From assembly GCA_964631135.1 (NCBI GenBank), contig CAZVVZ010000002.1, positions 3,333 through 35,332 on the forward strand: 32,000 nt of DNA. The letters are read 5' to 3'. The stretch comes from an uncultured Eubacteriales bacterium (lineage in GTDB: Bacteria; Bacillota; Clostridia; TANB77; RGIG9151). Shown here one piece after another: positions 5,691-25,301 of this stretch. A model generated the notes under the pieces. The model saw only the letters and a list, made by a program, of their open reading frames with translations. It did not search any database and had not been told where the DNA came from. The position numbers and the translations under genes are program-made. How positions within the stretch are numbered: the stretch's first letter is position 1; every line of letters starts with the position of its first letter.

Positions 5691-5785
5691 GCTGCCGTTA
5701 CTAGTCAGAGTATATGTCGCTGGTCAGAGTGCATGAAATAAGATATATGTTTTATCGGAACTCAAGATTTGCGACGAAAGACTTT
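5691..5785 (+). repeat. intergenic palindromic-element family, copy A (half copy: left end plus arm X only)
   Basis: GCTGCCGTTACTAGTCAGAG-TATATGTCGCTGG-TCAGAGTGCATGAAATAAGATATAT, followed by arm X GTTTTATCGGAACTCAAGATTTGCGACGAAAGACTTT (5749..5785). The copy ends where the loop would start, 11 nt before the nrnA stop codon. Confidence 0.85.
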
Positions 5786-5796
5786 AAAAACTTAGT

Positions 5797-6768
5797 TTAA
5801 ATGATTTTTGAAAAAGCTTCTATTAGTTGCTGTTTCGCTTCCTCGCCGGATTCTGTATTAACTCTGCAACCGGCTGCGAATTTATGTCCGCCCCCATTGA
5901 ATTCGGAAGCAACCCCTGAAACATCTATTTTTCCGTTGGATCTTATACTTATTTTCTGAATGTCTTTAAACGGTTTAATAAAAATACCCACTTCGACACC
6001 TTTTATATATCTTGCATAATCAACTATTCCATCTAATTCACTAGGCTCCAAGTTAAATTTCTCAACATCTTCTTTTTTTGCCATAAGAATAGCCAATTTT
6101 CCGTCTAAAAATACTTCAACATTCTGTAATAGCCTTCCCATAAAAATAATCCTATTAAGACTACTCTCTGAGAACATATGATAAGATATATCAGAAACAT
6201 TTATACCATATTCCATTAGTTGACTTGCAATCTCAAAAGTCCTTTTTGAAGTATTACTGTGGCTAAAATTTCCTGTATCCGATGATATAGCACAATATAA
6301 AGCTGTTGCGATTTCAGTGTCGATCTCTATATTCATAGATTTTAATAAATCAAATATAATCTCACCTGTAGCCGCTGCATCCGGCCTTATATAATTCTCG
6401 TCCGCAAACTTGTTGTTTGTAAAATGATGATCAAGGCAAGCAGTAGTTTTTGCATTAACAAATAAATCTTTGGCTTCTCCCATTCTATCTAAATCACCAC
6501 AGTCTAAAGCAATACATAAATCATACTCTTTTTTTAAATCTGCAACATCAAAAGTTTTTATTTCTTTACCTATAGACTTCAACAAAAATTCGCAATTTGA
6601 AGGTACTTTTTCTATTATACCTTCTACACTTTTACCATATTTAATCAGTGCCTTAAATAGTCCTATAATGCTTCCTACCGCATCACCATCAGGATTTTCA
6701 TGCACTAATAAGACAATACTTTTAGCAATATTTATTTTCTCGATAATAGAAGTAAAATTATCTTGCAT
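5797..6768 (-). CDS. nrnA: DHH-family phosphoesterase, NrnA-type oligoribonuclease/pAp phosphatase
   Basis: 323 aa with the DHH motifs HENPDGDAVGS and LDHHF, and the DHHA1 motif GGGH near the C-terminus. It sits in the conserved position after rbfA. Confidence 0.85.
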   Translation of the reverse strand: MQDNFTSIIEKINIAKSIVLLVHENPDGDAVGSIIGLFKALIKYGKSVEGIIEKVPSNCEFLLKSIGKEIKTFDVADLKKEYDLCIALDCGDLDRMGEAKDLFVNAKTTACLDHHFTNNKFADENYIRPDAAATGEIIFDLLKSMNIEIDTEIATALYCAISSDTGNFSHSNTSKRTFEIASQLMEYGINVSDISYHMFSESSLNRIIFMGRLLQNVEVFLDGKLAILMAKKEDVEKFNLEPSELDGIVDYARYIKGVEVGIFIKPFKDIQKISIRSNGKIDVSGVASEFNGGGHKFAAGCRVNTESGEEAKQQLIEAFSKII

Positions 6769-6780
6769 AGTCTAGTCTCC

Positions 6781-7110
6781 TTACATAATTTCCTTTATAA
6801 CCTTATCAATATGGGCTCCATATTCCAAAGAATCATCAATTATAAACTGTAATTCAGGCAATATTCTAATCTGAATTCTGTTACCGAGCTCTTTTCTCAT
6901 ATAACCTGCTCCACTTTTTATACCCTCTAATACTTCGGCTTTGTCTGCTCCCATTATGCTTACATAAATCTTACAAAATTTTAAATCCTTTGTAAGCATT
7001 ATCTTAGTAATACTAATCAAACCTTTTACTCTCGGGTCTTTCAATTCATTTTGAATCATTTCACTAATAACTTTTTTTATTTCTTCTGCAATTCTATCTG
7101 TTCTATCCAT
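6781..7110 (-). CDS. rbfA: ribosome-binding factor A
   Basis: 109 aa beginning MDRTDRIAEEIKKVISEMIQNELKDPRV. It lies immediately downstream of infB. Confidence 0.9.
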   Translation of the reverse strand: MDRTDRIAEEIKKVISEMIQNELKDPRVKGLISITKIMLTKDLKFCKIYVSIMGADKAEVLEGIKSGAGYMRKELGNRIQIRILPELQFIIDDSLEYGAHIDKVIKEIM

Positions 7111-7136
7111 AACAATCCCTTTCTTAAAAGCAACTA

Positions 7137-7173
7137 TTTATTTTGCGGTAAACTAATATCACCGCAAAATAAA
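7137..7173. other. 13-bp hairpin between infB and rbfA
   Basis: TTTATTTTGCGGT, an 11-nt loop, then ACCGCAAAATAAA. The T-run (7174..7179) is on the plus-strand side only, so on the transcribed minus strand no U-tract follows the hairpin. Confidence 0.4.
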
Positions 7174-7190
7174 TTTTTTAGTATATCCGG

Positions 7191-10163
7191 TTATGCTTTA
7201 ATTTCTTCCATAGCATATCCTTCAATAACATCTCCCACCTTAATGTCGTTATACTTTTCCAGTCCAATACCACACTCATATCCTTCATTAACTTCTTTTG
7301 CATCATCTTTTTCTCTCTTAAGAGAAGAAATCTTACCTTCAAACACAACGATGCCCTCTCGTACTAATCTTACATCAGAATTTCTTAGAATCTTGCCATC
7401 AGTAACATAAGAACCTGCAATAGTTCCGACACTGGAAATTTTAAATATCTGTCTTACCTCAGCATGACCGGTTATAACTTCCTTAAACTTAGGTGCAAGC
7501 ATTCCTTTCATTGCAGCGGTAATATCCTCAATAGCATTGTATATTATACTATATAATCTAATGTCTACACCTTCTCGTTCTGCAACAGCTTTAGCTGTAA
7601 CTTCAGGTCTTACATTAAATCCGATTATAATTGCATTGGATACCTGAGATAACATTACATCAGATTCAGTAATAGCACCAACAGCACCATGAATAACCTT
7701 AACTTTCACTTCTTCGTTAGAAAGCTTTTCTAAACTCTGTTTTACGGCTTCAACTGACCCTTGAACATCTGCTTTTATAATAAGATTTAGCTCTTTTACT
7801 TCACCTGTTGAAATCTTGTCAAACAAATCGTCTAATGTTACTCTTGAGCTTGCTCTTAATGTATCCTCTCTCTTCTTCAGTTTTCTCTTTTCAACCAACT
7901 GTTTTGCAAGTTTTTCATCTTGAACCACATAGAAAATGTCACCGGATTCAGGCACTTCAGGTAAACCTGTAATCTCAACAGGAATTGAAGGACCTGCTTT
8001 CTTTATTCTTCTGCCTCTTGAATCTGTCATCGCACGAATATGTCCAACAACATTACCGGCAACAACAGTATCTCCCACGTTTACAGTACCACGTTGAACA
8101 AGCAAAGTCGCAATAGGACCTTTACCTTTATCAAGTTTAGCCTCAATAATAGTCCCCTTAGCTTGACGGTTAGGATCTGCCTTTAATTCAAGCACATCAG
8201 CAACTAAAGTAACAGTTTCCAGCAATTCAGTTATGCCTATTCTCTTTTTCGCGGAAACAGGAACACAAATTGCATCTCCGCCCCATTCTTCAGGCACAAC
8301 CCCATAATTCATAAGTTCTTGTTTTATTTTTTCCGGGTTTGCAGCTTCCTTATCTATCTTATTTATAGCAACAATTATTGAAACCCCTGCAGCCTTAGCA
8401 TGGTTTATAGCTTCAATAGTCTGCGGCATAATACCGTCATCTGCTGCAACAACTAATATTGCGATATCCGTAACCTGAGCACCTCTTGCACGCATTGAAG
8501 TAAATGCTTCATGTCCCGGTGTATCTAAGAATGTAATATCTTTTCCATTGATATTTACAGTAGATGCACCTATATGCTGTGTAATTCCGCCGGCCTCAGT
8601 ATCAATAACGTGGCTTTCACGAATAGCATCAAGTAAAGATGTTTTGCCGTGGTCAACATGCCCCATAACAACTACTATCGGCGGCCTTGGCTGTAAATTC
8701 TCTTGAATGTCCGGAGCATCATCAAACAATATATCTTCTGCTTTAACAACTACTTCTTTCTCAATCTTTATTCCATATTCATCCGCCATTATAGCCGCTG
8801 TATCATAATCAATTTCGTGATTAACTGTTGCCATAACTCCGTAAGTCAAAAGCTTTTTAATAACATCAGCTGATGTTTTCTTCAACTTCTCCGCTAATTC
8901 TTTTACTGTTATGCTCTCGCCAACAGTAATACTAAACGGCAACTGCTTTGGCTGTTCAAAATGCCTTGGTTCTTCTTTCTTCTTTTTACCGCCACTCTTG
9001 TTTCTTCTATCTAAATCATAATAATTCATCAATACTGAATCATCGTTATTTAATAGTTCATTTACAGAATGGCCTGCTCTTAGTTCTTTTAAATGCTCTT
9101 TATTAAAATCTCCAATATGTGCATTGCTCTTAGGCCCTTTTGTCGGTCTTCTTTCCTGATTGTCATTATTCTGAGGCTTTTGTCTAAATTGCCTACCTGG
9201 CTCTTTGGTAACGTTTTCAACAACCGGTGAATCTTTAAAAGCTTGTTTTAATTGGCTTTCCATACCGCCTTGTTGAGATCTGTTATTTTGTCTGTTAAAT
9301 TGAGGCTTATTTCCTTGAAATTTATTATTACCATTATTACTTTTTTTATTTTGCCAGTTCCCTTGAGGGCGATTGCTGTTTGCTCCCTGTCGATTATTAA
9401 ACTGACTATTATTTGGGCTTTTTGATTGATTATTTCTATTATTTTGTTGGTTATTATTTCTATTATTTTGTGAAAAAGAGGCTTTTTCGTTTTTAGCTTC
9501 CGTCACTAATTTTTTCACCTCGGTTTTAGGCTTCTCTTCTTTTATTTCTTCAGTTTTGCTTACTTCATCAGCCTTTGGTTTTTCTTCCGCAGTCTTCTCT
9601 TCTGCAGTTTTTTCTTCTACAATTTCTTCCTTTATAGGCTTTTCATCTACCTTAGCTGGTACTTCAACAGTCGTCTTTTTTTCAGGTTCCTCTAATTTTT
9701 CTACCTTTTCCGGCTCTTCCTTAGGAGCGGTCTTAGGCTTAAATAAGTCCATTATGCTTGGAATTGGGGTATTTTTCTTTTCGATTTGAGCTTCGCTTCT
9801 TCTAAACTGTTCAGGATTAGCAGTTTTTCTAGGTTTCAAATCATAATCAAAATTAGAATGGGTCTCTTTCTTCTCCTCAGTAATATCCTCTCTAACTTGA
9901 ATAATCTCTCTTCTAATTATTCTTGGCTCATCTTTTTTCTTCTCATTTTTTTTGGTTTGTTGATTTTTTGACATTTGTTTACTATCACTTCCGCCTTTGG
10001 TCTTAGCCTCGTTTAGTTTTTCTTTGATTTTCTTTAAATCCTCATCTTCTATTACATTAAGATGGCTCTTTACTTCAATTCCCCATTCTTGAAGTTTCAT
10101 TAAAAAATCCTTATTACTCATTCCTACTTTTCTTGCTATTTCATAAACCTTAACTTTACCCAA
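7191..10163 (-). CDS. infB: translation initiation factor IF-2 (990 aa, expanded low-complexity N-terminus)
   Basis: G-domain motifs [22 protein letters not shown] and NKID, with conserved C-terminal domains. The start is TTG at 10163 with GGAGG 8 nt upstream, and it overlaps the ylxQ stop by 8 nt. Confidence 0.95.
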
Positions 10164-10488
10164 TTACTGCACCTCCATTATTTTTTTCCAAGCCTTCTAT
10201 TAACTGTTCTAATTTATTAGAAAACCCTACCTCGCAAACAGAATATATAACTTTATTTTTTTCTCCCGTCGCTCGCTCAAAATCTTCTTCACGACCCAAA
10301 ATATAAAATTTGATACCATTTTCATCACACAATCGTTTGAATTTTTCTTTGACACTATTTCCTGCATCTTCATTAACTATAACAAGTTCTGCTTCTAATG
10401 ATAATATAGTCCTTAAAACCGCATTTGAACCGGCAACAAGCTTACCGGCTTTTTTAGCAAAGCCTAGTAACGACAATATTCTATCCAT
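10156..10488 (-). CDS. ylxQ: L7Ae-family RNA-binding protein (YlxQ)
   Basis: 110 aa beginning [21 protein letters not shown], in the conserved slot between ylxR and infB. Confidence 0.8.
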
Positions 10489-10500
10489 ACAAACTCCTTT

Positions 10501-10773
10501 TTACTCTTTACTGTCAGCCTCAATTTCTTCTCTTAATCGCTCATACACTTCATTTTCTATCGGCATTTCAAAAGCCCTTGATAATCGTTTTGTTTTAATT
10601 GCTTTTTCTAAACAAGAAATATTAGGACATATATATGCGCCTCTGCCATTTTTCTTGCCCGTAAAATCAATCGATACTTCACCTTCAGCAGTTTTTACAA
10701 CTCGTATCAATTCCTTCTTTGGCTTTCCTTCATTACACCCGATACACGTTCTTATTGGAATTTTTTTCACCAA
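10501..10773 (-). CDS. ylxR: YlxR/RnpM family (DUF448) RNA-binding protein
   Basis: 90 aa containing PIRTCIGCNEGKPKKELIRVV...GRGAYIC, directly downstream of nusA. Confidence 0.85.
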   Translation of the reverse strand: MVKKIPIRTCIGCNEGKPKKELIRVVKTAEGEVSIDFTGKKNGRGAYICPNISCLEKAIKTKRLSRAFEMPIENEVYERLREEIEADSKE

Positions 10774-10788
10774 AGCTCAAACCCCCAA

Positions 10789-11841
10789 TTATATTTCTAA
10801 AATTTCATTTTTTATCTGAGTTTCACTCTTAATATCTATCTTAAATCCAGTAAGTCTTGCAGCAAGTCGAACATTCTGGCCTTCTTTTCCTATTGCTAAA
10901 GATAACTGATTATCCGGCACAACAACCTTGGCCGTTTTTTCCTCTTCATTTACATCTACCGCTAAAACTTCTGCAGGATTTAATGCACTGGCAATATATT
11001 GTGCCGGAACAGGGCTCCATTCAATAATGTCAATTTTTTCGCCATGTAACTCATTTATAATATTTTGAACTCTTGTTCCTTTAGGCCCTACACAAGATCC
11101 AACCGGGTCAATGTTTTCCATCTTAGTCATAACAGCCATTTTAGTTCTAGAACCGGCTTCTCTTGAAACAGAAACAATTTCAATAATTCCTTCATATATT
11201 TCAGGCACTTCTAATTCAAACAATCTTTTTACTAAACCCGGGTGAGTTCTTGAAATGAATACCTGAGGCCCTTTCAAGCTTTTTTCAACTTTCGTTATAT
11301 ATGCCTTTACTCTGTCTCCGACTTTAAATGTTTCCCCTGGGATTAACTCCTGAGTCAAAATAAGTGCCTCGGTTTTGCCTATATTTACAACCAACCCTCT
11401 TTTGTCCTGAGTTGTTATTAGTCCATTTACTATATCCCCGTCTTTCCCTATATACTGATTAAAAGTAGCTTCACGTTCTGCCTCTCTAATTCTCTGAACA
11501 ACAACCTGCTTTGCGGTTTGTGCAGCAATTCTTCCAAAATTCTTAGGTGTAACCTCGTTTTCAACAATATCTCCTACATTATATTTCTTACTTATTTCTC
11601 TTGCATCTTCTAAAGAAATCTGTAAATCTGAGTTTTCTACTTCTTCCACTACCGTACGTTGTGCATAAACATGAATATCTCCACTCTCTCGGTCCATGGC
11701 CACTCTCACATTCTCATTTGAATCAAAATTCTTTTTAAATGCCGTAATCAATGCAACTTCAATCGCATCAAACAAAATTTCCGCACTTATCCCCTTTTCT
11801 TTTTCTAAATCATCAATTGCACTAATAAAATCTGAATTCAT
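10789..11841 (-). CDS. nusA: transcription termination/antitermination factor NusA
   Basis: 350 aa with an N-terminal domain, an S1 domain and two KH domains (GPKGTRVQNI, GKEGQNVRLA). It sits in the rimP-nusA context. Confidence 0.95.
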   Translation of the reverse strand: MNSDFISAIDDLEKEKGISAEILFDAIEVALITAFKKNFDSNENVRVAMDRESGDIHVYAQRTVVEEVENSDLQISLEDAREISKKYNVGDIVENEVTPKNFGRIAAQTAKQVVVQRIREAEREATFNQYIGKDGDIVNGLITTQDKRGLVVNIGKTEALILTQELIPGETFKVGDRVKAYITKVEKSLKGPQVFISRTHPGLVKRLFELEVPEIYEGIIEIVSVSREAGSRTKMAVMTKMENIDPVGSCVGPKGTRVQNIINELHGEKIDIIEWSPVPAQYIASALNPAEVLAVDVNEEEKTAKVVVPDNQLSLAIGKEGQNVRLAARLTGFKIDIKSETQIKNEILEI

Positions 11842-11856
11842 TTTCCTTTTTCCCCC

Positions 11857-12300
11857 TTAAAAATTATACACAGTTTTTACAACTGAAATGTCTTTTCTAT
11901 CTATACTAAAGTTATTTATCTGTAATTTCTCTTCATCAAAGTCCTGTAAAATGCCCTTTATTTTCTTTTCCCCATTTACCGGCTTAAATAAAGATACCTC
12001 AACTTCCGTATTTAAATATCTTTTAAAATGTTCTTCTCTTCTTAACGTTCTTTCTATCCCCGGCGAAGAAACTTCTAAAGAATATGCAGTTTTAATAGGA
12101 TTTAGTTCATCTATTAACTCATCTATAGCTCTACTTACTGTTTCACAATCTTCAATAGATATACCTTCTTCTTTGTCTATGTATATCCTAAGATACCAGT
12201 TTGCTCCTTCTTTTACATATTCAACGTCGTAAATATCATACCCCAATTCATTTACTTTAGGTTCAATATAATTCCATACTGCTTCTTCTACTTTCGCCAT
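11857..12300 (-). CDS. rimP: ribosome maturation factor RimP
   Basis: 147 aa containing YLRIYIDKEEGISIEDCETVSRAIDELID and LEVSSPGIERTL. It is the first gene of the nusA operon. Confidence 0.9.
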   Translation of the reverse strand: MAKVEEAVWNYIEPKVNELGYDIYDVEYVKEGANWYLRIYIDKEEGISIEDCETVSRAIDELIDELNPIKTAYSLEVSSPGIERTLRREEHFKRYLNTEVEVSLFKPVNGEKKIKGILQDFDEEKLQINNFSIDRKDISVVKTVYNF

Positions 12301-12321
12301 AATTACCTCCTCATTACAAAC

Positions 12322-12347
12322 GAAAGAGTGGGAAAACCCACTCTTTC
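12322..12347 (-). promoter_or_regulatory. leader hairpin / candidate attenuator upstream of rimP-nusA
   Basis: The minus-strand RNA reads GAAAGAGUGGG-UUUU-CCCACUCUUUC (an 11-bp GC-containing stem) followed by GUUUGUAAUG, an interrupted U-tract, and then the GGAGG RBS of rimP. It lies downstream of the predicted promoter at 12373..12401. Confidence 0.5.
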
Positions 12348-12372
12348 AGCAACGTCTATATCAAGCATTATC

Positions 12373-12401
12373 AATATACCACATCTTGCCACAAAATGCA
12401 A
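12373..12401 (-). promoter_or_regulatory. sigma-A promoter (extended -10) for the rimP-nusA-infB operon
   Basis: The minus strand reads TTGCAT (12401..12396), a 17-nt spacer ending in TGTGG, then TATATT (12378..12373). This gives a TGTGgTATATT extended -10. Confidence 0.6.
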
Positions 12402-12429
12402 GTATTTTTTCAGAAAACTGCATTACAGG

Positions 12430-12598
12430 GTTACTGTTCAGACTACCTGCTGCTGGTCAGAGTACATGAAATAAGATATATGTTTTAAAAGGAACGAATA
12501 TTTGCCGAAAGACTTCCCGTATTTTTTTAAAGTCTTTCGTCGCAAATCCTGAGTTCCAATAAAACATATATCTTATTTCATGTACTCTGAACAGTAAC
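12430..12598 (-). mobile_element. intergenic palindromic-element family, copy B (full length, inverted relative to C and E), MITE-like
   Basis: The terminal inverted repeats are GTTACTGTTCAGAC (12430..12443) and CTCTGAACAGTAAC (12585..12598). TTACAGG abuts both ends (12423..12429 and 12599..12605). A perfect 31-bp outer stem pairs 12457..12487 with 12560..12590. Arm Y is at 12482..12515 and arm X, reverse-complemented, is at 12529..12565. Confidence 0.8.
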
Positions 12599-12647
12599 TT
12601 ACAGGTCCCCAGCCAACGGCAGCAACTCATCAAGTCACTGTTGAAAC

Positions 12648-13967
12648 TTACTCGCTTACTTCTACATCAATATATACTATATCCCCTGTATTAAACTTAA
12701 CCTTTATCGATGTATAGCCTGCATTTTTTCCTGTTATCTTTACTTTGCCATTACTTGTTAATGTTGTCTTATCTAACTTTATGTATGAATTATTATATGT
12801 AAGTGTTGCACTTGTCGCATCAAACTCGTCTAAATCAATATATACATATTCATACTCATCTTCCTCAATTTCTACTTCATCATAATTATCTCTGTAATCA
12901 TCATCGTCATCAATTTCTATATCTATATATACCGTATCTCCGGAATCATATTTAATCTTTACTGTTGTATCTCCTTCTTTTTTAGCAGTTATTGTTAAAT
13001 ACCCGTCACTTGTAAATTTAGTTTTAGATACTTTCACATAATTACTGTCATATGTAATTTTCGCTTCATCTGCATCATAATCGTCTAAATCAATATATAC
13101 TTTATGAGTATCCCCTACGTCCATGCTTACTTCTTCTTCATCATCGTCATCATCATCATCAATCTCTATATCTATATATACCGTATCTCCGGAATCATAT
13201 TTAATCTTTACTGTTGTATCTCCTTCTTTTTTAGCAGTTATTGTTAAATACCCGTCACTTGTAAATTTAGTTTTAGATACTTTCACATAATTACTGTCAT
13301 ATGTAATTTTCGCTTCATCTGCATCATAATCGTCTAAATCAATATATACTTTATATGTATCTCCGGTTTCCATGCTTACTTCATCTTCATACTCATCATC
13401 GTCTGTAACTTCTACATATAGTTTTTCAACATCACCCGTATTATATGTAATCTTTATCGTTGCCTCTCCTTCTTTTGAGCCTGTTATTTTTAAGTCACCC
13501 GATGAGGTAAATTTTGTTTTACTTACTTTCACATATGAATTTGAACCTGTAACTGTTGCACTTCTTGCACTATATCTTGCTAAGCTTACATAGTAAGTTT
13601 CACTTTCACCTTTTTCTAGTTCAATATCTTCTTCTCTTGTTTCTGTATAATAATTATTGCTACTACTGTTATAACTGCTGTTGTAATTATTATTATAATT
13701 ATTATAATTGTTAATATAAATTGCATTATTATTAAATGTAACTGTAGAACCCAAAGCTGTTCCAAGCTCGTTCAACGGCAAATATGTTCTCCCGTTATAA
13801 TTTAGTACCGGAGAAGTTGAAGCATAATAGCTTCCGTTTAAGTAAATAGGATAAGAACTAAAATACACATCTCCCGTAACCACTGAGGAAGCAATACTAA
13901 CTCCGCATGTTACTATAATTCCGGCTACTACTCCCATAAAAATACTTTTTAAATCAAATTTTTTCAT
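12648..13967 (-). CDS. membrane-anchored surface protein: copper-amine-oxidase-N-like stalk domain plus four Ig-like (Big_2-like) repeats joined by poly-acidic linkers
   Basis: 439 aa with an N-terminal TM helix (IFMGVVAGIIVTCGVSIASSVV). The segment YLNGSYYASTSPVLNYNGRTYLPLNELGTALGSTVTF resembles Cu_amine_oxidN1. There are four ~80-aa repeats of the form ...YVKVSKTKFTSDGYLTITAKKEGDTTVKIKY..GD..YIDIEI separated by D/E runs. An AAGGAGG RBS is present. Confidence 0.7.
   Translation of the reverse strand: MKKFDLKSIFMGVVAGIIVTCGVSIASSVVTGDVYFSSYPIYLNGSYYASTSPVLNYNGRTYLPLNELGTALGSTVTFNNNAIYINNYNNYNNNYNSSYNSSSNNYYTETREEDIELEKGESETYYVSLARYSARSATVTGSNSYVKVSKTKFTSSGDLKITGSKEGEATIKITYNTGDVEKLYVEVTDDDEYEDEVSMETGDTYKVYIDLDDYDADEAKITYDSNYVKVSKTKFTSDGYLTITAKKEGDTTVKIKYDSGDTVYIDIEIDDDDDDDEEEVSMDVGDTHKVYIDLDDYDADEAKITYDSNYVKVSKTKFTSDGYLTITAKKEGDTTVKIKYDSGDTVYIDIEIDDDDDYRDNYDEVEIEEDEYEYVYIDLDEFDATSATLTYNNSYIKLDKTTLTSNGKVKITGKNAGYTSIKVKFNTGDIVYIDVEVSE
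12917..13354. repeat. in-frame tandem duplication, period 249 bp (83 aa), inside the surface-protein gene
   Basis: By eye, 12917..13105 is identical base for base to 13166..13354 (189 bp). The flanks of each unit have diverged. Confidence 0.9.
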
Positions 13968-15202: not shown

Positions 15203-15355
15203 GTTTGAGCAGAGCTTAGCGGTCAGACTACTGTAAAAAAATAATATATATGTTTTATCAGGACTTAGGATTTGCAACGAAAGACTTTGAAGAATACGAG
15301 AAGCCTTTCTGCAAATATTCATTCCTTTTAGAACATATATATTATTTTTTTACAG
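15203..15355 (+). repeat. intergenic palindromic-element family, copy C (full hairpin)
   Basis: A degenerate left end (GTTTGAGCAGAG-CTTAGCGG-TCAGAC) is followed by a perfect 24-bp outer stem pairing 15231..15254 with 15332..15355. Arm X is at 15252..15288 and arm Y, reverse-complemented, is at 15301..15334. The copy ends 22 nt after the upstream gene's stop codon. Confidence 0.85.
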
Positions 15356-15377
15356 CCCTTTTATTTAGCCAATCTTT

Positions 15378-16388
15378 TTAATCTTGTGTATCAACATCAA
15401 CATCAATGTCATCATCAGGTTCCGTATCATCATTTGGAGCTAATAAATCACTTTCAGCTATTTCCATTATATATTTTCCTCTTTCTTCGCTATAATTAAA
15501 TGAAATAAGTGATTTTTCCAAGGTCTCATCTAGCTGACGTAAATCTGTAGTATATAAAGGAGTGCAATCTTTTAACACTATCCTGTTTTTAACAAGAAGT
15601 TTAAATATCTCAACCAAGTGAGTATCATCTTCTCCAAGTAGCACCAACTGTGGCGGATTATCAAATCCGGAATCACGCATATTATAATACTCATAAAATT
15701 CAGCATATAGCTGCATTTTAGTAACAAACTTTTCTTCCCAACCAGGTTCACGTCTTACAGCCTCAAAAACAAAGTCAACTGTTTTTCCTTCTTTGTTTAA
15801 ACTAACTACCCCGCCGGAAACCTTAAACCTTATGTTCTGTCTTTTCGCCATAAGTACAGGATCAACAACATAATTTTTAAAATACTTAGCCTTCATCATA
15901 TAAGCGATTATAACCTGATTCCCTGCCAGCCTTTTCTTTATTAAATGCACCGGCTTTGTATTATTTGTAGGTACCCATTCTGTTCTTATTTCTCTTGAAT
16001 TTAATAAATATTTTCCTGATTTATCTAAGCAATAAATTCTATAAATTCCATTACCCTCGTCACTCTTAAAATAATATTTTGCAATAGCTCTTGCTTTTAT
16101 CAAATTTTCAAGCCTTGCATTAACTTTATTTTGGTCTTTTATCTCAATTCCCTTCATCTGAAGTAACTGATAAATTTGCCTTGACGTAATGAACTCAAAC
16201 TTACTAATAAGCTCTAGCATTTCAAAATGCAATTCATTAACATACCCCATATCTACCATAAAAACAGCCTGATTTACGTTAGAATACCCGGTCTTGCCAT
16301 CGTAAACTTTCTCTTCATTCGGACGCATCGCAAAAGGTGATTTCGTCGCTTTTACTTCTTTATCATTAATCATAATCATAACCTCCAT
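15378..16388 (-). CDS. hypothetical protein with an N-terminal winged-helix-like segment, resembling the replication-relaxation family (PF13814-like), and an acidic C-terminal tail
   Basis: 336-aa ORF. The GGAGG inside the first codons suggests that the true start is the ATG at 16373 (MINDKEV...). The segment LELISKFEFITSRQIYQLLQ...ARLENLIKARAIAKYYF...IYRIYCLDKSGKYLL follows the wHTH pattern I associate with Replic_Relax proteins. The C-terminus is NDDTEPDDDIDVDVDTQD. The family assignment is from memory and unverified. Confidence 0.45.
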   Translation of the reverse strand: MEVMIMINDKEVKATKSPFAMRPNEEKVYDGKTGYSNVNQAVFMVDMGYVNELHFEMLELISKFEFITSRQIYQLLQMKGIEIKDQNKVNARLENLIKARAIAKYYFKSDEGNGIYRIYCLDKSGKYLLNSREIRTEWVPTNNTKPVHLIKKRLAGNQVIIAYMMKAKYFKNYVVDPVLMAKRQNIRFKVSGGVVSLNKEGKTVDFVFEAVRREPGWEEKFVTKMQLYAEFYEYYNMRDSGFDNPPQLVLLGEDDTHLVEIFKLLVKNRIVLKDCTPLYTTDLRQLDETLEKSLISFNYSEERGKYIMEIAESDLLAPNDDTEPDDDIDVDVDTQD

Positions 16389-18113: not shown

Positions 18114-18211
18114 ACAACACACACCTCCACAAAAATTGCATATACTAATATATTCATTTTTGTGTTATTTGTGCATGTACGACAGATGCCTAAAAATATT
18201 CATATTTTATA

Positions 18212-19861
18212 TTACTGCTCAAAATTCTGAAAAGGCATTTCCATAGTAAAAGGCCTAAACTCACCATTAAATTTACTTAAAATATCACTGTTCTTCTCCA
18301 CAACAATAACCTCTTTTGTACTTTTTTCATATAATACCGCACAAAGCATATATAAATAATCCGCCGGTGTTTTATTAACTTCCTTTCCCACACTTTCAAA
18401 AATCTTTTTTGCCATCTTATTAAGCAGCGGAGCCTCAGTAAGACGAGAAAGCCTTATAAAATTCATAGCCACAACAGAATTAACTGATGGGATAGCCCCA
18501 TCATAAGTTTCTTTAGGATTTATTATAAGTTTTTCACTACTCTTGCTGTAAAATAAAATTCCATCATTCGTATCATCCCAAAAGTTTTCTATAATTTTCT
18601 CATTTAACTTCACCGCATCGTCTAAATATTTATCTTCATAAGTCGCTTGATAAAGCTCGATAAGCCCCCAAACAAAAAAAGAATAATCTGTAGAATAAGC
18701 ATTTCCAAAAGAATTTCCTTTTATATAATATGAACTTAAAGTACCGTCACTTTTATATAAATGCTCTAATATAAAATCTGTTGCATCTTTCGCAATAACA
18801 ATATATTTAGGCTCCTCCAAAACTTTTCCTGCCATAGCAAAAGCAGCAATAGCCAAGCCGTTCCAGCCTACAGATATTTTTTCATCAATAAATGGTAGTT
18901 TACCATTTACTGATTCAGAATCCTCAGCAGAATAAAATCCTCCTTCTGCCGATAGTAACTTCTTTTTTATATAGCCCAATGTTTCTTCTACAACATTTTT
19001 GTAGATATCCTTCTGAATAACCTCATAAGCTTCTAAAAATGCCATCGCCATCAGTGCATTTGTATATAGCATCTTTTCATAATGCGGATTATTCCATGAT
19101 ACTGTCGTAGCATACCTAAAAAATCCTCCATTACTCTTATCACAAATTTCCCCGTTTTGTATATGATCTAATGTCTTTTCTACCATATATAATGCATATT
19201 CATCACGATATAAATACCAATATCTGAGCAGAAAGAAAATTTGCTGAGCTAAGGGAAACTTAGGAGCTCCTCCAAAGCCACCAAAACTATTATCAAAAAT
19301 TGACTTCATAATCCATAATGCATCTTGTGAAGCCTTATCACTGATTTCCTCTTTAATAAACTTTTTAGAATTAAGAGCTTCTGTAACTTCTCCAGCCACT
19401 GCTTCAATTTCACTTCTTTCATTTAACCACGAATTTCTAAGCTGCTGTAAAACAGATAAAAAATCTTGACTTCCGTGTTCTTTTTTTATCGGGAAATAAG
19501 TTCCCACAAAAAAAGGCTCTCTTTTCGGTGTAAGGAAAATATTAAGTGGCCATCCGGCACTTTCAGACATGCAAAGTGCCGCTTCCATATAAACAAGATC
19601 TATATCCGGTCTTTCCTCTCTGTCTACTTTAATACAAACAAAATACTCATTTAAATATTTTGCTATTTTCTCATCATTAAAAGCCTCTCTCGCCATTTTA
19701 TGGCACCAATAGCAGGTAGAATACCCTATACTAAGCAATATAGGTTTATCCTCCTTTTCAGCTTTAGAAAAAGCATCTTCTCCCCACGGGAACCAATCAA
19801 TAGGATTATCTGCATGTTGCAGCAAATACGGCGACTTTTCTTTATACAATAAATTAGGCAT
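18212..19861 (-). CDS. thioredoxin-domain protein of the DUF255/YyaL family (N-acylglucosamine-epimerase-like alpha/alpha barrel)
   Basis: 549 aa. The N-terminus reads [22 protein letters not shown]...[15 protein letters not shown]...[10 protein letters not shown]. It is shorter than the ~690 aa I recall for B. subtilis YyaL. Confidence 0.8.
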
Positions 19862-19903
19862 ACTTTTTCACCTCAAAAAAAGTATGCCCAAATTTTATTT
19901 TTT

Positions 19904-21232
19904 CTATAACCTTATCTTTGTTAAACAGCATATAAAAAAGCCATCACACCCATGCATATTAGGCAATAACGATAACATTCCGTCTTTAAGACCATTCTCC
20001 CACTCTTTAGGAATTAGAGTTGCATCAGTAATAACCTTAAAATTACTGTTTTTATTTAAAAACCATCTTATGGTGTCTTGATTCTCCTTAAAAATATTAG
20101 TACAAGTACTATAAACTAATATACCGCCCACCTTTAAATACCGAGCAGCATTTTCTAATATTTTCTTTTGAACTTCATTTATTTTTTCAATATCCTCTTC
20201 TGCAATATTAAACTTAATATCCGGCTTTTTCCTAATAACTCCTAGCCCCGAACAAGGAACATCTGCAATAATTCTATCAAACTTATTAACAAACTCTTCA
20301 CTGAATTCTGTAGCATCTTTTATTTTAGTCTTTATAGAATAAATTCCAAGCCTTTTTGCTGTTTCTTCTATAAGCTTTACCCTTTTAGGGTATAAATCCA
20401 TAGCGATTATATTAGCATTATCATTGACAAGCTGAGCAACGTGTGTAGTTTTTCCTCCCGGTGCTGCACATATATCTAATATTTCTTGACCTTCTTCAGG
20501 CTTTAATAAATGTGCCACAAGTGCCGGTGCCTCATCTTGTAACGTTATTAAGCCATTTTTAAACTCCGTAGAATTTATTATGCTTTTTACGTCAGTAGTA
20601 TAAAAAATGTCATTCAATTTACCATAATTACATTCTGTAAACTTCTTTAATATTTCTTCTCTTGAAATTTTTAATGTGTTAACCCTAACACAATCAAAAT
20701 CCACCTTCTCATTAGCCTTTAATAAAGTTTTAGTATTCTCTTTTCCAAACTGCTTTATCCATACATCAATAATCCATCTAGGATAAGAATAATACACAGA
20801 TAAGTACTCTTCTACATTATCTATTCCTTTAAAAAACTCATTTTTATCAGTTCTAGATGCATTTCTTAGCATAGCATTAACAAAATTAGCAGAAGAAACA
20901 TGTCCATACTTTTTCGCAAGTTTAACTGCTTCATTGCATGTCGCAGCCGCAGGAATCTTATCTAAATAATATATCTGAAATATTCCCAGCCTCAAAATAT
21001 TAAGAATAGGATTCGCTATTTTATTAAATCTTACCTTAGAAGATTTTTTTATAATATAGTCTATCGCTAATTTATTTGCAATAACACCATAGACGAGCTG
21101 AGTAACAAACGTTTTATCCACGTCGCTTAGCTCTGACTTATTAAGTTCACTATTCAATAATATATTAGAAAATGCCTTGTCATTCTGGGACTTCATAAGA
21201 ATGTGCAAAGCAAGCTCACGAGCATTTTGCAT
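19904..21232 (-). CDS. rsmB: 16S rRNA (cytosine967-C5)-methyltransferase
   Basis: 442 aa with an N-terminal NusB-like domain. The SAM motif is DICAAPGGKTTH, and the catalytic motifs are DVPCSGLGVIRKKPD and YSTCT. Confidence 0.9.
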   Translation of the reverse strand: MQNARELALHILMKSQNDKAFSNILLNSELNKSELSDVDKTFVTQLVYGVIANKLAIDYIIKKSSKVRFNKIANPILNILRLGIFQIYYLDKIPAAATCNEAVKLAKKYGHVSSANFVNAMLRNASRTDKNEFFKGIDNVEEYLSVYYSYPRWIIDVWIKQFGKENTKTLLKANEKVDFDCVRVNTLKISREEILKKFTECNYGKLNDIFYTTDVKSIINSTEFKNGLITLQDEAPALVAHLLKPEEGQEILDICAAPGGKTTHVAQLVNDNANIIAMDLYPKRVKLIEETAKRLGIYSIKTKIKDATEFSEEFVNKFDRIIADVPCSGLGVIRKKPDIKFNIAEEDIEKINEVQKKILENAARYLKVGGILVYSTCTNIFKENQDTIRWFLNKNSNFKVITDATLIPKEWENGLKDGMLSLLPNMHGCDGFFICCLTKIRL

Positions 21233-21246
21233 GTTATATTCCTCTC

Positions 21247-22413
21247 CTAATACGAATTGTCTATCTGTACAACAACATTATATCTTTTATCTTTACTTTT
21301 TATTTTTCCCTCTAAAATATCTAATACTGCTTTTCTTTCACTGGCCTTCATTTCAATCGGAACTACAAGGTCAAAAATCAAATTGATACTGTTTTCTCCG
21401 TCTACCATTCTAAAATCGTGTATAGAAAATTTAGGATTTATTTCAGTGACTATATTATTTACCATATCTCTTGCATTATTAGTTTTCTCACAATTAAGAG
21501 AAATCGGATCCATATGAATTACAAGTAAAACACCAAACTTCTCTAAAACACTCTTTTCTAAATCATCTATCACTTCATGGATTTTTACAATATTAACATT
21601 GTCCGGTACCTCTGCATGAAGAGAAGCAATTACCACACCCGGTCCATAATCATGAGCCATAAAATCATGAACTCCGACTACTCCATCTGCCGACATAACA
21701 AAATCTGTTATTTGTTTAATCAATTCTCTGGAAGGTGGCTCACCAATAAGTCTCCCTATTATTTCCTTTGCAACATTTATACCCGCATAAATAATTAAAA
21801 TAGACACTAATACCCCCATTATTCCATCAACGGGGAAAGCTATGAATCGCCCTATAAGCACAGAGAAAATGACAGCTCCTGTAGATATACAATCGTTCAA
21901 ACTATCTACAGCAGTTGTTTTCATAACACTAGAATTTATTTTCTCGCCAATAAATTTATTGTATGAATACATCCAAACTTTTACTAAAACCGATACACAT
22001 AAAATAATAAGAAGAATAGGGCTAAACTGTAAAGCTTCCGGATTAAATATTTTATCCACAGAAGTTTTTAGTAGCTCTATTCCAACTAATATTATGATAA
22101 AAGAAACTATCATGGTAGAAATGTACTCAATTCTACCGTGTCCATAAGGATGCTCTCTATCCGCCTGCCTGTTGCTCATCTTCGAACTAATAATAGTTAC
22201 AGCAGATGATGCCATATCAGATAAGTTATTAAAAGCATCCGATATTATCGCAATACTATTCATTATCATGCCTATCACTAGTTTTAATATGAATAAAAAT
22301 AAATTACAAAAAATTCCCAGTGAACCCGAAAGCACTCCGTATTGCTCACGTACGTTCCTATCTGAAACATTTTCATAATTCTTAATAAATTTTTTAATTA
22401 AAAAATCAATCAT
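21247..22413 (-). CDS. cation diffusion facilitator (CDF) family transporter
   Basis: 388 aa with six predicted TM segments. It contains SDAFNNLSD and HPYGHGRIE motifs and a C-terminal cytoplasmic domain. Confidence 0.85.
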   Translation of the reverse strand: MIDFLIKKFIKNYENVSDRNVREQYGVLSGSLGIFCNLFLFILKLVIGMIMNSIAIISDAFNNLSDMASSAVTIISSKMSNRQADREHPYGHGRIEYISTMIVSFIIILVGIELLKTSVDKIFNPEALQFSPILLIILCVSVLVKVWMYSYNKFIGEKINSSVMKTTAVDSLNDCISTGAVIFSVLIGRFIAFPVDGIMGVLVSILIIYAGINVAKEIIGRLIGEPPSRELIKQITDFVMSADGVVGVHDFMAHDYGPGVVIASLHAEVPDNVNIVKIHEVIDDLEKSVLEKFGVLLVIHMDPISLNCEKTNNARDMVNNIVTEINPKFSIHDFRMVDGENSINLIFDLVVPIEMKASERKAVLDILEGKIKSKDKRYNVVVQIDNSY

Positions 22414-22459
22414 AATATAATCTCCAATTATCCGTCAGGCTTATTTAAAATTCAGTCAA

Positions 22460-22540
22460 TATCAGACATAAATAAAATATATGTTTTATTTATGTCTGAG
22501 TAGCAGCCTAATCAGGCTCTTAAAAATAATATGTATGTTT
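22460..22540. repeat. intergenic palindromic-element family, copy D (minimal/degenerate: outer stem only, plus a second truncated stem fragment)
   Basis: TCAGACATAAATAAAA-TATATG-TTTTATTTATGTCTGA (22460..22497) is a 16-bp stem carrying the family's TCAGA and AATAAAATATATGTTTTA features, but both inner arms are missing. GTAGCAGCC follows, and then AAAATAATATGTATGTTTTA (22521..22540) runs into the upstream stop codon. Confidence 0.55.
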
Positions 22541-24105
22541 TAATATGTAATTGTAACAGTTCCGGTAGTCGCATTCCAAATAACACTTCCGCCCAAATTG
22601 TCCATTACAAATTTAATCGGAAGCATTGTTCTGCCATTTATTGATGTTGGTGCAACATCTAACCATTTTTGCTCTCCATTAACATATGCTAAAGCACTAT
22701 CTAAAGTTAAATAAATATTATTATTATCTAAAGTTATATTTACTCCCCTAGCTGCTTCATTCCAAATAACACTCCCGCCTAAAGACTCAATAACTGCTCT
22801 TATAGGTAACATTGTCCTATTGTTTAATATAACAGGAGCAGTAGCCCTATCTCCATCTATTGAAACTTTCTGGCCATTTACAAGCATATATGGGTTATTT
22901 ATTTCAAGAACTATATTAGTTTTACTATAAGTATTACCTGTTTCTACTAAAAAGCTGTAATCTTCATTTGAATAGTTTCTCGAACTAACCTTAAAATAAT
23001 ACTCACCCGTTGAAACTTCTTGAGTAGATCCACTTACAAAGTTTGTTAAAGTGCCGGAAGAAAATGTTTCACTTTTTAGTTGCTTCAATGTTCCATTTTC
23101 ATTTTTATAAGTAACAACCGTGTACTTTGCTCCCTCAGGCACGTTCATTTTTATAGTAAACTTATTGCTGTTCCAAATATCAGTTCTGTAATAATCCACA
23201 TCACTACTTGAATTCAAATTGCCAATATATTCAATATTTGTTGTAATTTCATTTGCATTTCTAGGCTCGTCATTATACTCTTTCTCATAGTATCCGTATG
23301 TGTTCCCCAAAAACTTCACGCAAAACGTATAATCCTCATTAGAAAATTTACTTCCGTTTCTGCTTATCTTAAAATAATAATTTCCTTCCGGTATTCTCAT
23401 TCTCCCTGAAGTTGCAAAATAAGTATCTGAATTTTGGTTAAGCTTAGCTTCATATTTTGTACTCTTTAAAGATTTCAGCGAACCATTATTCTCAGAATAT
23501 GTTTCAATATTATAAACAGCCTCATTATCAAACTCCAACGTAGTATAAAGCTCACCGTTAGAAGGAATTTCAACCATATAATAGTCAACATCGCTGGTAG
23601 ACTCCAAATTGCCAATTATATTTCTGTTATAATCGATAAGCATAGCTGTTTTTGCATCATTATTCGGCTCTTTTTCATATCGATCACCGGATTCTTCATC
23701 ATATATAACTTCTAGTTCGTATTCCTCATCACAAAAAGAGCTATAACCATCACAAGTAACCTGAATCTGATAATTTCCCTTAGCAATTCTAATCTTATTT
23801 CCGGTCTGCTCGTATCTTCCGGTAGACGTATTAACACTGGACTTAAATGTTGTGGTCTGAAGTGTCTTTTCTGTCTTTGTATTTACCAATTTTACGTTAT
23901 ATGAACCTTCCACATCAAATTCAAACTTTATTTGTAAGCTTCCCGGATCTGAAAGTGAAAAATTAAAATAATCCACTTCACCCTTTTCAGATATTTCATC
24001 TTCAATTAGTTTATTAACCTTAATTGTTTTACTCGTACCTTCTTTCGCTAAAGATACAGAAAATAGTAAACAAAACGTAAAAAAAGCAATTAAAATTTTC
24101 TTCAT
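22540..24105 (-). CDS. secreted protein: three pre-peptidase-C-terminal (PPC)-like domains plus two C-terminal copper-amine-oxidase-N-like repeats
   Basis: I take the ATG at 24105 as the start (MKKILIAFFTFCLLFSVSLA signal peptide, GAGGGAGAG RBS). The track's start at 24141 would overlap the predicted -10. There are three repeats containing E.EPN(D/N)....A and DVDYY motifs. The C-terminus contains NNRTMLPIRAVIESLGGSVIWN and INGRTMLPIKFVMDNLGGSVIWN. Confidence 0.75.
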   Translation of the reverse strand: MKKILIAFFTFCLLFSVSLAKEGTSKTIKVNKLIEDEISEKGEVDYFNFSLSDPGSLQIKFEFDVEGSYNVKLVNTKTEKTLQTTTFKSSVNTSTGRYEQTGNKIRIAKGNYQIQVTCDGYSSFCDEEYELEVIYDEESGDRYEKEPNNDAKTAMLIDYNRNIIGNLESTSDVDYYMVEIPSNGELYTTLEFDNEAVYNIETYSENNGSLKSLKSTKYEAKLNQNSDTYFATSGRMRIPEGNYYFKISRNGSKFSNEDYTFCVKFLGNTYGYYEKEYNDEPRNANEITTNIEYIGNLNSSSDVDYYRTDIWNSNKFTIKMNVPEGAKYTVVTYKNENGTLKQLKSETFSSGTLTNFVSGSTQEVSTGEYYFKVSSRNYSNEDYSFLVETGNTYSKTNIVLEINNPYMLVNGQKVSIDGDRATAPVILNNRTMLPIRAVIESLGGSVIWNEAARGVNITLDNNNIYLTLDSALAYVNGEQKWLDVAPTSINGRTMLPIKFVMDNLGGSVIWNATTGTVTITY

Positions 24106-24139
24106 AATTCTCTCCCTCGCATTAACATAATTCATATAC

Positions 24140-24168
24140 ATTGTACTACATTAAGATAAAAATTGCAA
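24140..24168 (-). promoter_or_regulatory. sigma-A promoter for the PPC-domain protein gene
   Basis: The minus strand reads TTGCAA (24168..24163), a 17-nt spacer, then TACAAT (24145..24140). Confidence 0.55.
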
Positions 24169-24193
24169 TGATTCAAGCAAGAATTTTGAATTC

Positions 24194-24358
24194 CACCTGC
24201 CAGCCAAAGTACTAGTATATGAAAATAATATATATGTTTTATCGGGACTCAGGATTTGCGACGAAAAACTTTAAAAAATGTGGGAAGTCTTTCGGCAAAT
24301 ATTCGTTCCTTTTAAAACATATATATTATTTTCATATACTAGTGCTCTGACTAATAAC
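24194..24358 (+). repeat. intergenic palindromic-element family, copy E (full hairpin)
   Basis: A perfect 31-bp outer stem pairs 24211..24241 with 24313..24343. Arm X is at 24236..24272 and arm Y, reverse-complemented, is at 24285..24318. The right terminal module is CTCTGACTAATAAC (ending at 24358) and the left flank is CACCTGCCAGCCAA. The copy ends 12 nt after the deoD stop codon. Confidence 0.85.
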
Positions 24359-24370
24359 ATTTCAGGAATT

Positions 24371-25078
24371 TTATATTTTCAATGTAGTTTCTAAAGCTAA
24401 AACAATCATGTCATTTAATGCTTTTTGTCTTTCCTCGGCACTAAGTTGCTCGCTATACAAAAATGAATCTGTTACACTAAGTAAGCAAGCTGCCTGCTTA
24501 TTTAGCACACGTGCATTATGAAATAGTGCAAAGGACTCCATTTCAACAGCTAAACATCCATATTCATCTCTTAATTTCCTAAAATCAGAAACATCAGAAT
24601 AAAATACTTCTGTATTATGAACTGTTCCTACAACCAGCTTTATATCTTTTTCGTTTGCGGTTTCTATTATTTTTTCATTTAATTCCATAGAAGCAGGTAT
24701 AAACTTATCATTATTCCCATTCTGAAGTTTTGCAAAAGCACCTTCGCTAAAAGATTTGTCAACCAGAATTACGTCTAGAAGTTTTAGCCCTTCCGCATAA
24801 GCACCGCAACTTCCGATTCTTATAATCTTATCTACGTCATAAAATTTATATAGCTCGTAAGAATATATGCCTATACTTCCATTTCCCATGCCATGTGCCA
24901 TTACTGTAATTCTCTTTCCTTTATAATTTCCGGTGTATGCATACATACCGCGAACCGAGTTGACAAGTTTTACGTCCTCCAAAAAGTTTTCTGCTATATA
25001 TTTAGCTCTAAGAGGGTCCCCAGGCATTAGGACAATATTTGCAATATCTTCTTTTTTTGCTTCGTTATGAGGTGTCAT
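24371..25078 (-). CDS. deoD: purine nucleoside phosphorylase, DeoD type
   Basis: I take the ATG at 25078 as the start (MTPHNEAKKEDIANIVLMPGDPLRAKYIAE...) with an AAAGGA RBS. GMGNGSIGIYSYEL, RIGSCG and VEMES motifs are present. The track's 20-codon N-terminal extension is not typical of DeoD. Confidence 0.9.
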   Translation of the reverse strand: MTPHNEAKKEDIANIVLMPGDPLRAKYIAENFLEDVKLVNSVRGMYAYTGNYKGKRITVMAHGMGNGSIGIYSYELYKFYDVDKIIRIGSCGAYAEGLKLLDVILVDKSFSEGAFAKLQNGNNDKFIPASMELNEKIIETANEKDIKLVVGTVHNTEVFYSDVSDFRKLRDEYGCLAVEMESFALFHNARVLNKQAACLLSVTDSFLYSEQLSAEERQKALNDMIVLALETTLKI

Positions 25079-25227
25079 AAATATCAATCCTTTCTTTTTT
25101 ATTTTCATATAATGTAAATTTTTTCTACAATAAATCAAAAATTATATCGTAATTTTCTGCTTTATTCTTTAATAGCATTAGTGTAGTTGAAATTATTTGT
25201 GCACATTAGAAAGTTATTTTCTGTCAC

Positions 25228-25301
25228 TATTTATAATAAAAATAATATATGCTTTATCAAAACTCAGGATTTGCGGTGAAAGACTTTAATTATTTTCATG
25301 T
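25228..25301 (+). repeat. intergenic palindromic-element family, copy F (internally deleted: arm X joined directly to the right outer-stem remnant)
   Basis: AAAAATAATATAT is followed by arm X GCTTTATCAAAACTCAGGATTTGCGGTGAAAGACTTT (25242..25278), and then directly by AATTATTTTCATGTAGTAGTGCC. That last stretch resembles the right end of copy E (ATTATTTTCATATACTAGTGC). Confidence 0.7.

Follow-up and report, generated by a model that had tools for sequence, protein, structure and literature searches.

What is the long imperfect palindrome that recurs between otherwise unrelated genes of a Clostridia chromosome, and how did it come to occupy so many of its intergenic gaps? The question is raised by a chromosome stretch of 32,000 nt (the window; G+C content 33%) of contig CAZVVZ010000002.1 in assembly GCA_964631135.1, which derives from an uncultured Eubacteriales bacterium, a spore-forming member of the Clostridia. 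Several assemblies from ENA (ERZ272792xx) and Logan (SRR118808xx) contain the same species, at 95.7–99.9% identity; the longest same-species contig, ~35.3 kb, extends ~3.3 kb beyond the window start, and ~35.5 kb of sequence were examined in total. With a probability of roughly 0.65, we interpret the eight palindromic loci found there (copies A–H) as one family of small, non-coding, non-autonomous mobile elements, of the kind of miniature inverted-repeat transposable elements (MITEs), ERIC and REPINs, that spread after the split from the sister species.

One imperfect palindrome recurs in unrelated intergenic regions

A preliminary description of the window, made from its letters alone, had reported one imperfect palindrome at six intergenic loci (A–F), and all six were recovered, as full, half or internally deleted copies that together cover 711 of the 2,850 intergenic nt (25%). 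The sizeable gaps are filled much as had been described, elements being present in five of the six gaps longer than 200 nt and in six of the nine gaps of at least 120 nt, and every copy lies 6–47 nt past a stop codon, within or between transcription units. That these loci are homologous was verified by a sequence profile and a covariance model, which matched the copies at E-values of 1e-12 to 1e-39: the arm profile (nhmmer) yielded eight arm matches in the window (E-values of 7e-12 to 5e-20), and the covariance model R1 scored the five full copies, namely B, C and E in the window and G and H just past its start, at 120–149 bits. The copies differ by 1–17%, with 83–99% identity over the 84-nt core, and the unrelated gaps that hold them are separated by as much as 28 kb.

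Copies B, C and E had been described as full elements of ~125–170 bp that read outer stem, arm X, loop, reverse-complemented arm Y and outer stem, and this layout held, with a loop of 12–13 nt across the full copies in place of the 12–14 nt first given. With up to three mismatches allowed, arm X was found at 5749–5785 (+), 12529–12565 (−), 15252–15288 (+) and 24236–24272 (+), i.e. at four of its five reported sites (four matches versus 0.00 expected from shuffles); the fifth arm, in copy F, is real and more diverged, and its position had to be corrected by 9 nt, from 25242–25278 to 25251–25287. Arm Y was retrieved at all its reported sites, exactly at 12482–12515 (+) and 24285–24318 (−) and with four mismatches at 15301–15334 (−). 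The remaining loci form a decay series, as A is a half copy, F has no Y, and D is a minimal stem consisting of a 38-nt outer-stem mini-hairpin plus a 21-nt arm fragment. On the gene strand, copies B, G and H read from X to Y and copies C and E from Y to X; the X arms of the partial copies A and F are oriented as in C and E, and there is no strand bias.

The elements are absent from orthologous sites in sister species

Orthologous regions were available from a JGI metagenome locus (L036; NrnA 81% identical), from two loci of the NCBI metagenome-assembled genome GCA_964316295.1 (L040, NrnA 71% identical; L057, with a 521-aa protein 63% identical) and from three further sister-species loci (L050–L052; the 521-aa protein 69% identical). 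These loci keep the gene order, with alignable promoters and leaders of rimP and rpmF, but the element is missing from every site open to comparison (A, B, C and D). Sites A and B are empty in both L036 and L040, and at site D the 521-aa gene and the CDF gene are 126 nt apart here, with the copy, and 18–20 nt apart in L050–L052 and L057; this empty D site was supplied by a search for Cu_amine_oxidN1 paralogues, made to reach more of the genome, which returned orthologues only. Since the orthologous sites are empty beside conserved promoters, the copies are lineage-specific insertions, and the empty sister sites together with the 83–99% core identity indicate that the family expanded after the lineage split.

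Across ~59 kb of sister-species DNA the profile gave no match to the element, and the matches of the covariance model were driven by structure only, to unrelated hairpins. A palindrome at L040 1843–1966 and a hairpin at L057 1885–1953, scoring 25–41 bits by structure and not by sequence, were rejected as homologues, as was an L057 arm compared with the X-side arm of copy E (p = 0.018, uncorrected). Both regions (L040 1843–1966 and L057 1880–2040) belong to the more distant relative and correspond to the sites of C and E; their terminator hairpins are of unusual length, one being a palindrome of 110 nt that ends in GGGGCTGTAAAAAAA...TTTTTTACAGCCCC followed by six Ts, and the other region having two consecutive hairpins of 70–85 nt.

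Copy C stands in a particular relation to such a native structure. Its core lies between GGGCTGTAAAAAAA and TTTTTTTACAG, which are both arms of the native terminator of the orthologous L040 gene, its outer stem CTGTAAAAAAA/TTTTTTTACAG matches the terminator arms at that site, and a GTCAGACTAC unit is located outside its 3′ arm. There are hints, therefore, that copy C resulted from insertion into, or recombination with, a pre-existing hairpin.

A layered element with inverted ends

Reading the arm alignment from the outside inwards revealed four layers. The outermost consists of one or two tandem terminal units of 17–19 nt around a TCAGAGTAC core, of the types GTTAYTRKTCAGAGTAY (usually with CTG-N2-4 before it) and CTGCTGCTGGTCAGAGTAC; the decamer GTCAGAGTAC occurs six times versus 0.64 expected. 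Units of GTTAYTRKTCAGAGTAY plus GGTCAGAGTAC are inverted at both ends of B, E and G, forming terminal inverted repeats, and GTTAYTRKTCAGAGTAY/GGTCAGAGTAC units are present at one end only in A, C and H, the second end of C being without a terminal unit and the other end of H running off the contig. The second layer, an outer stem of 25–35 bp, splits the copies into two subfamilies, A, B and H with ...ATGAAATAAGATATAT, and C, E, G and F with ...GAAAATAATATATAT. The third is formed by X (37 nt) and Y (34 nt), which are related yet consistently different, so that two fixed internal loops and a 2-nt bulge interrupt the fold, and the fourth is the conserved 12–13-nt loop AAAAAAATRYGGG.

The sole open reading frame (ORF) through the core, of 36–43 aa in the X-to-Y direction, was rejected as a coding sequence because its frame shifts between copies with 12-nt and 13-nt loops. 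The element flanks carry no TA duplication, and an apparent 9-bp duplication at G was discarded as the terminus that G shares with H.

The outer stem covaries around a conserved asymmetric apex

Copies B, C and E each fold into one long hairpin on either strand (−49 to −73 kcal/mol as RNA and −29 to −49 kcal/mol as DNA, both with z-scores of −9 to −15); taken singly, neither the two arms nor the terminal units form a fold (0 to −1.9 kcal/mol, z-scores of −0.01 to +1.2). In the outer helix of the five full copies, two-sided changes were found at 10 of 31 pairs and one-sided changes at just one, with 98% of cells paired, and E, G and C each have an outer-stem sequence of their own that is mirrored on both arms. 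In the two inner helices decay is one-sided throughout, with no pair changed on both sides, and all five full copies retain the X/Y asymmetry as well as conserved internal and apical loops. Measures of covariation over the whole structure lay above 500 of 500 shuffles and all slid controls. The pattern is thus an unusual one, namely an asymmetric apical core conserved without compensation and an outer stem that covaries.

Substitutions on one side of a helix produced, on a given strand, G-U four times and A-C four times, and with copies in both orientations there is therefore no sign of selection on one RNA strand. The mirrored stem fits subfamily ancestry, selection for pairing and template-switch ‘mirroring’ alike, as five copies do not discriminate among the three. 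None of the elements was called in a terminator scan, and the hairpins lack a U-tract behind them; the native terminators of ftsZ and rpmF, of the classical type, are separate structures.

No relatives were detected in other genomes

The preliminary description had not recognised a named family, and the Rfam scan agreed with it: neither the whole window nor single elements matched any family (CRISPR direct repeats, tracrRNA and omega-RNA/HEARO included) at the gathering threshold, and at an E-value threshold only generic plant microRNA-precursor hairpin models appeared, at 11–47 bits versus thresholds of 70–249. A degenerate 21-mer matching most X arms gave four matches in 185,579 GTDB species genomes and 17 in JGI metagenome contigs, all attributable to chance as the rest of the arm was absent, and IMG/VR yielded one chance match for X and none for Y. 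Whole elements searched by blastn found no match among PLSDB plasmids, phage genomes and 5,426 E. coli genomes. Literature searches by exact element sequence and by sample accession were empty, and keyword searches retrieved no Clostridia family of this type. The right end of IS1 loosely resembles termini of copies A, B and H, agreeing at 24 of 32 positions when gaps are allowed; with an uncorrected p of 0.013 for the best of 18 comparisons, this is not significant after correction and is no more than a weak lead. Having searched Rfam, genome, metagenome and virus collections and the literature, we consider the family apparently species-restricted and apparently uncatalogued before. The results for these 35.5 kb agree with the reading first proposed, in which the long palindromes form an unnamed family, dispersed in the manner of ERIC, BOX, RUP or Correia elements; the accompanying comparison of its density with those of ERIC and Correia is an extrapolation from eight loci in 35.5 kb.

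Proposed mechanism and rival explanations

If the copies are mobile elements, as we propose, they would be mobilised in trans by an enzyme encoded elsewhere in the genome, which would act on the inverted ends (and perhaps on the folded core as well) and move or copy the element into the short spacers between stop codon and promoter, where insertions would be tolerated. An inserted palindrome would be unstable, and hairpin slippage could then cut a copy down to one half (A), strip it of its core (D) or remove one of its arms (F). Read-through by RNA polymerase would turn the element into a double-stranded hairpin of at least 30 bp in a 3′ untranslated region (UTR) or intercistronic RNA, which probably would alter 3′-end stability or make an RNase III site, presumably as a side effect rather than as the element's raison d'être.

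Several observations weigh against this proposal. Comparison of the flanks gave no target-site duplication at C or E, a candidate one being visible at B only, and among the sampled same-species strains no presence/absence polymorphism was detected. No transposase, RAYT-like or Y1 gene was found in the 35.5 kb, and all observed copies lie on one contig of that length. Simple random insertion gives no explanation for the core of C sitting between terminator arms of the L040 type, and neutral decay of transposon ends does not predict the mirrored changes at 10 of 31 outer-stem pairs.

The mirrored stem is the starting point of a tentative proposal that departs from the ordinary transposon-end MITE: the conserved asymmetric apex (X, loop and Y, including the fixed internal loops) could be the substrate that a predicted enzyme or protein binds on single-stranded DNA or RNA, while the outer stem need only pair, which would explain why substitutions are mirrored on both arms; insertion might then target pre-existing hairpins such as terminators, as suggested by the position of the C core. 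We think this doubtful, and slightly less probable than a related explanation, itself unlikely on balance, in which the element moves as a folded single strand in the manner of REPIN/RAYT or IS200/IS605 systems, an HUH (Y1) enzyme reads the asymmetric core and selection for mobility keeps the stem paired. The inverted doublet of related, non-identical modules forming one long hairpin, the paired changes of the outer helix with a covariation that none of 500 shuffles reached, the internal and apical loops conserved in five full copies and the lack of a consistent target-site duplication all speak for movement as a folded strand, and compensatory changes are reported to be common in REPIN hairpins (PMC3116915). 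Yet neither arm and none of the terminal units folds by itself (z-scores of about 0 to +1.2), i.e. a short palindrome of the REP type is lacking; the arm and terminal sequences read contain no GTAG tetranucleotide; REPINs conserve their ends and covary in the spacer, the reverse of what is seen here; and the copies show no orientation bias (3 versus 4), nor do the 35.5 kb hold a Y1 or RAYT gene. A covarying helix below sequence-conserved internal and apical loops is also the classic pattern of a structured RNA, and very stable hairpins 6–47 nt past stop codons, inside or between transcription units, would suit a cis-acting module of 3′ UTRs or intercistronic regions (an mRNA stabiliser, RNase III site or protein-binding hairpin) that the host selects, mobility being secondary. 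We regard this as improbable, as the two orientations relative to transcription present different loop sequences in the RNA, the module is missing at the orthologous sites of four gene pairs whose promoters and leaders the sister species retain, truncated and non-folding copies (A, D and F) are tolerated, the inner helices lack compensatory change with equal G-U and A-C outcomes, and Rfam holds no such family, its generic long-hairpin microRNA models scoring far below their thresholds.

Far less probable is that the copies are ordinary, perhaps bidirectional, Rho-independent terminators that merely resemble each other. Hairpins just past stop codons, and the coincidence of the C outer stem with the native terminator stem of the L040 orthologue, are what this would lead one to expect; however, the terminator scan and the missing U-tracts contradict it, ftsZ and rpmF have terminators of their own, with F lying downstream of that of ftsZ, copy D sits in what the sister species have as an 18–20-nt operon junction, and an 84-nt core shared at 83–99% identity by unrelated gaps cannot arise by convergence. 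Least probable of all, in our judgement, is an assembly artefact or a purely local duplication. All copies seen are indeed on one 35-kb metagenomic contig and the assemblies disagree at the G/H junction, where L046, a same-species assembly, ends in a G/H hybrid, but independent ENA and Logan assemblies carry the same elements at the same sites with 96.5–100% identity, and the divergence between copies and their location in unrelated gaps up to 28 kb from each other also speak against it. The genuine contig ends, 7 of 35 of which fall within 60 nt of an element arm, are as expected, since repeats confuse assemblers.

Individual copies and their genomic setting

All large genes of the window are on the minus strand, and nearly all large ORFs belong to housekeeping or sporulation families. 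They include spoIIIAA, rpmF, nrnA, rbfA, infB, ylxQ, ylxR, nusA and rimP, genes for a repeat-rich Cu_amine_oxidN1-like protein, PdaA (pdaA), an S1-domain protein, sigK, rsmB and a CDF transporter, and the 521-aa Cu_amine_oxidN1 protein, deoD, ftsZ, ftsA, a POTRA-domain protein and murA. Domain and family matches of the ORFs revealed no transposase, reverse transcriptase, integrase or Cas gene in the window, in line with the preliminary description, and no mobile-element domain was found in the three large ORFs without an NCBIfam match.

Copy A (5697–5790, +) is a half element in which X is followed by a loop remnant and the Y half is missing; its left end carries two terminal sub-repeats, GTTACTAGTCAGAGTAT and then ATGTCGCTGGTCAGAGTGC, before the outer arm, with a possible start at 5689 (ATGCTGCC), and its right end is 6 nt before the nrnA stop codon. 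On its other side, the rpmF (L32) promoter (5564–5669, −) is a perfect TTGACA-18-TATAAT followed by a long leader conserved in three species, inside which L036 has an additional hairpin of ~45 nt.

Copy B (12430–12598, −) is a full element of subfamily 1 scoring 148.9 bits with R1, with X first on the minus (gene) strand; on the plus strand Y (12482–12515) is followed by the loop (12516–12528) and by X reverse-complemented (12529–12565). Its termini are GTTACTGTTCAGA...TCTGAACAGTAAC, with two terminal sub-repeats on the Y side and one on the X side. A 7-bp direct repeat, TTACAGG, abuts it on the left (12423–12429) and right (12599–12605) and is a candidate target-site duplication, which may instead be part of the terminus since the CTG-N2-4 motif precedes GTTAY at most ends. 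Close to B, a T-run hairpin (TGAAAGAGTGGG...CCCACTCTTTCGTTTG; 12321–12348, −) occurs in the rimP leader, downstream of the promoter; it is conserved in both L036 and L040 and is probably an attenuator of the rimP-nusA-infB operon. The ORF for the Cu_amine_oxidN1-like protein (12648–13967, −) has four tandem repeats of 249 nt (83 aa), whose number varies by strain, giving 439 aa in the window versus 356–357 aa in two further strains of the species (L022 and L053).

Copy C (15221–15355, +; 120.6 bits with R1) is a full element and the most diverged, with 83–86% core identity, and comprises the sub-repeat GGTCAGACTAC (15221–15231), X (15252–15288), the loop (15289–15300) and reverse-complemented Y (15301–15334). 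Copy D (22462–22499, without assigned strand; 20.5 bits with R1) is the mini-hairpin TCAGACATAAATAAAATATATGTTTTATTTATGTCTGA, which holds outer-stem sequence only, the core being deleted; the arm fragment beside it (22522–22542, +), AAAAATAATATGTATGTTTTA, overlaps the stop codon (22540–22542) of the 521-aa gene. In the sister species, the region upstream of the orthologous 520-aa gene carries an unrelated MITE-like element of ~210 bp (L050, ~1850–2058; also in L051 and L052), the terminal inverted repeats of which, GTAAAAGAGAAGATAAAAAGTGTATTAGAAAGC, are perfect over 33 nt.

Copy E (24196–24358, +) is a full element of subfamily 2 (147.5 bits with R1), with X (24236–24272), the loop (24273–24284) and reverse-complemented Y (24285–24318) between a diverged sub-repeat, CCTGCCAGCCAAAGTAC (24196–24212), and the terminal sub-repeat GTGCTCTGACTAATAAC (24342–24358), and ends 12 nt from the deoD stop codon. 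The mechanical ORF of deoD (24371–25138, −) begins at a TTG 20 codons too early; judging by the 235-aa length of its homologues, the gene starts near 25078, so that the ftsZ-deoD gap measures 310 nt. Copy F (25226–25308, +; E-value of 7e-12), just downstream of the native ftsZ terminator (25359–25327), consists of the left outer arm, the diverged X (25251–25287) and the right outer arm (ATTATTTTCATGTAGTAGTG), and with its internal deletion of Y the fold is lost (z-score of +0.6). Mutation of its X arm has created TTGATA-16-TATTAT (25233–25260, −), which faces deoD and has no other sigma-70-like sequence beside it on this strand of the ftsZ-deoD gap; it may be an element-derived promoter, although promoter-like matches are no commoner than in shuffles.

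Copies G and H form a tandem pair just outside the window, beyond its start and downstream of a gene of the SBP_bac_5 family (15662–16010 in the same-species assembly L045), where the contig ends inside H. L045 has both in full, and L046 (15640–15818) ends in a hybrid whose left arm is that of G and whose core and right arm are those of H; the hybrid is a true recombinant or else the result of a collapse by the assembler. Elsewhere in a sister species, L032 (3420–3865) has a 102-aa ORF between uvrB and ackA, with a G+C content clearly above its surroundings and a strongly folding leader ahead of it.

Implications and comparison with known palindromic repeats

At several core genes (nrnA/rpmF, rimP-nusA-infB, deoD and ftsZ) the palindromes add long double-stranded hairpins to the 3′ UTR or the operon junction, which could change transcript stability. 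The family fragments metagenomic assemblies of the lineage, several contigs ending inside elements, and serves as a species-specific marker; practical consequences are modest. Should the apex rather than the ends prove to be what is recognised, a new mode of mobilisation or targeting would be added to those of bacterial palindromic repeats. Given a complete genome, the contrast of apex and stem could help to decide between recognition by ends and by fold.

Two other repeat classes were considered and rejected. A CRISPR array is contradicted by inverted arm pairs kilobases apart among housekeeping genes and by the lack of cas genes, and integron attC sites by the syntenic housekeeping genes flanking the copies, which element-free relatives also have, by the occurrence in both orientations, by the lack of an integrase and by the motif order GTTTTA...TAAAAC, the reverse of that of attC (RYYYAAC...GTTRRRY).

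ERIC sequences are imperfect palindromes of ~127 bp, non-coding, intergenic but transcribed, inserted in either orientation and known in internally deleted or expanded variants, and we know of no transposase identified for them. The present family resembles ERIC/IRU of Enterobacteriaceae and Vibrio in being a non-coding, intergenic, imperfect palindrome over its whole length, in both orientations and with deleted variants; it differs in its Clostridia host, in the tandem TCAGAGTAC sub-repeats at its ends, in its conserved apical core with a covarying outer stem and in the lack of sequence similarity (blastn against the 5,426 E. coli genomes). Correia hairpins are substrates of RNase III. Several features of MITEs are present here, i.e. 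a small non-coding element with terminal inverted repeats, inserted where orthologous sites are empty, and with Correia/NEMIS of Neisseria, RUP/BOX of Streptococcus pneumoniae and bcr1 of Bacillus cereus the family shares a length of 100–200 bp, a high intergenic density, empty sites in relatives and hairpins when co-transcribed. Unlike classical MITEs, it is palindromic throughout and not just at its ends, and it shows a 7-bp flanking repeat at B only and no TA duplication. With REPINs (RAYT/TnpA-REP) it has in common two related inverted modules that build a long extragenic hairpin with compensatory changes, as well as decayed singlets or tandem clusters (cf. G and H). REPIN hairpins, in which compensatory changes are common, have conserved ends and a variable, covarying spacer (PMC3116915), whereas here X and Y are not palindromic themselves, no REP palindrome with GTAG was found, the core is kept while the stem varies, and no RAYT gene occurs in the 35.5 kb. 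The family thereby adds to the high-density palindromic repeats a Clostridia example with an inverted conservation pattern, conserved at the apex and covarying in the stem. With no detectable sequence relationship to any of them, it is closest in kind to ERIC, REPIN and MITE-type repeats.

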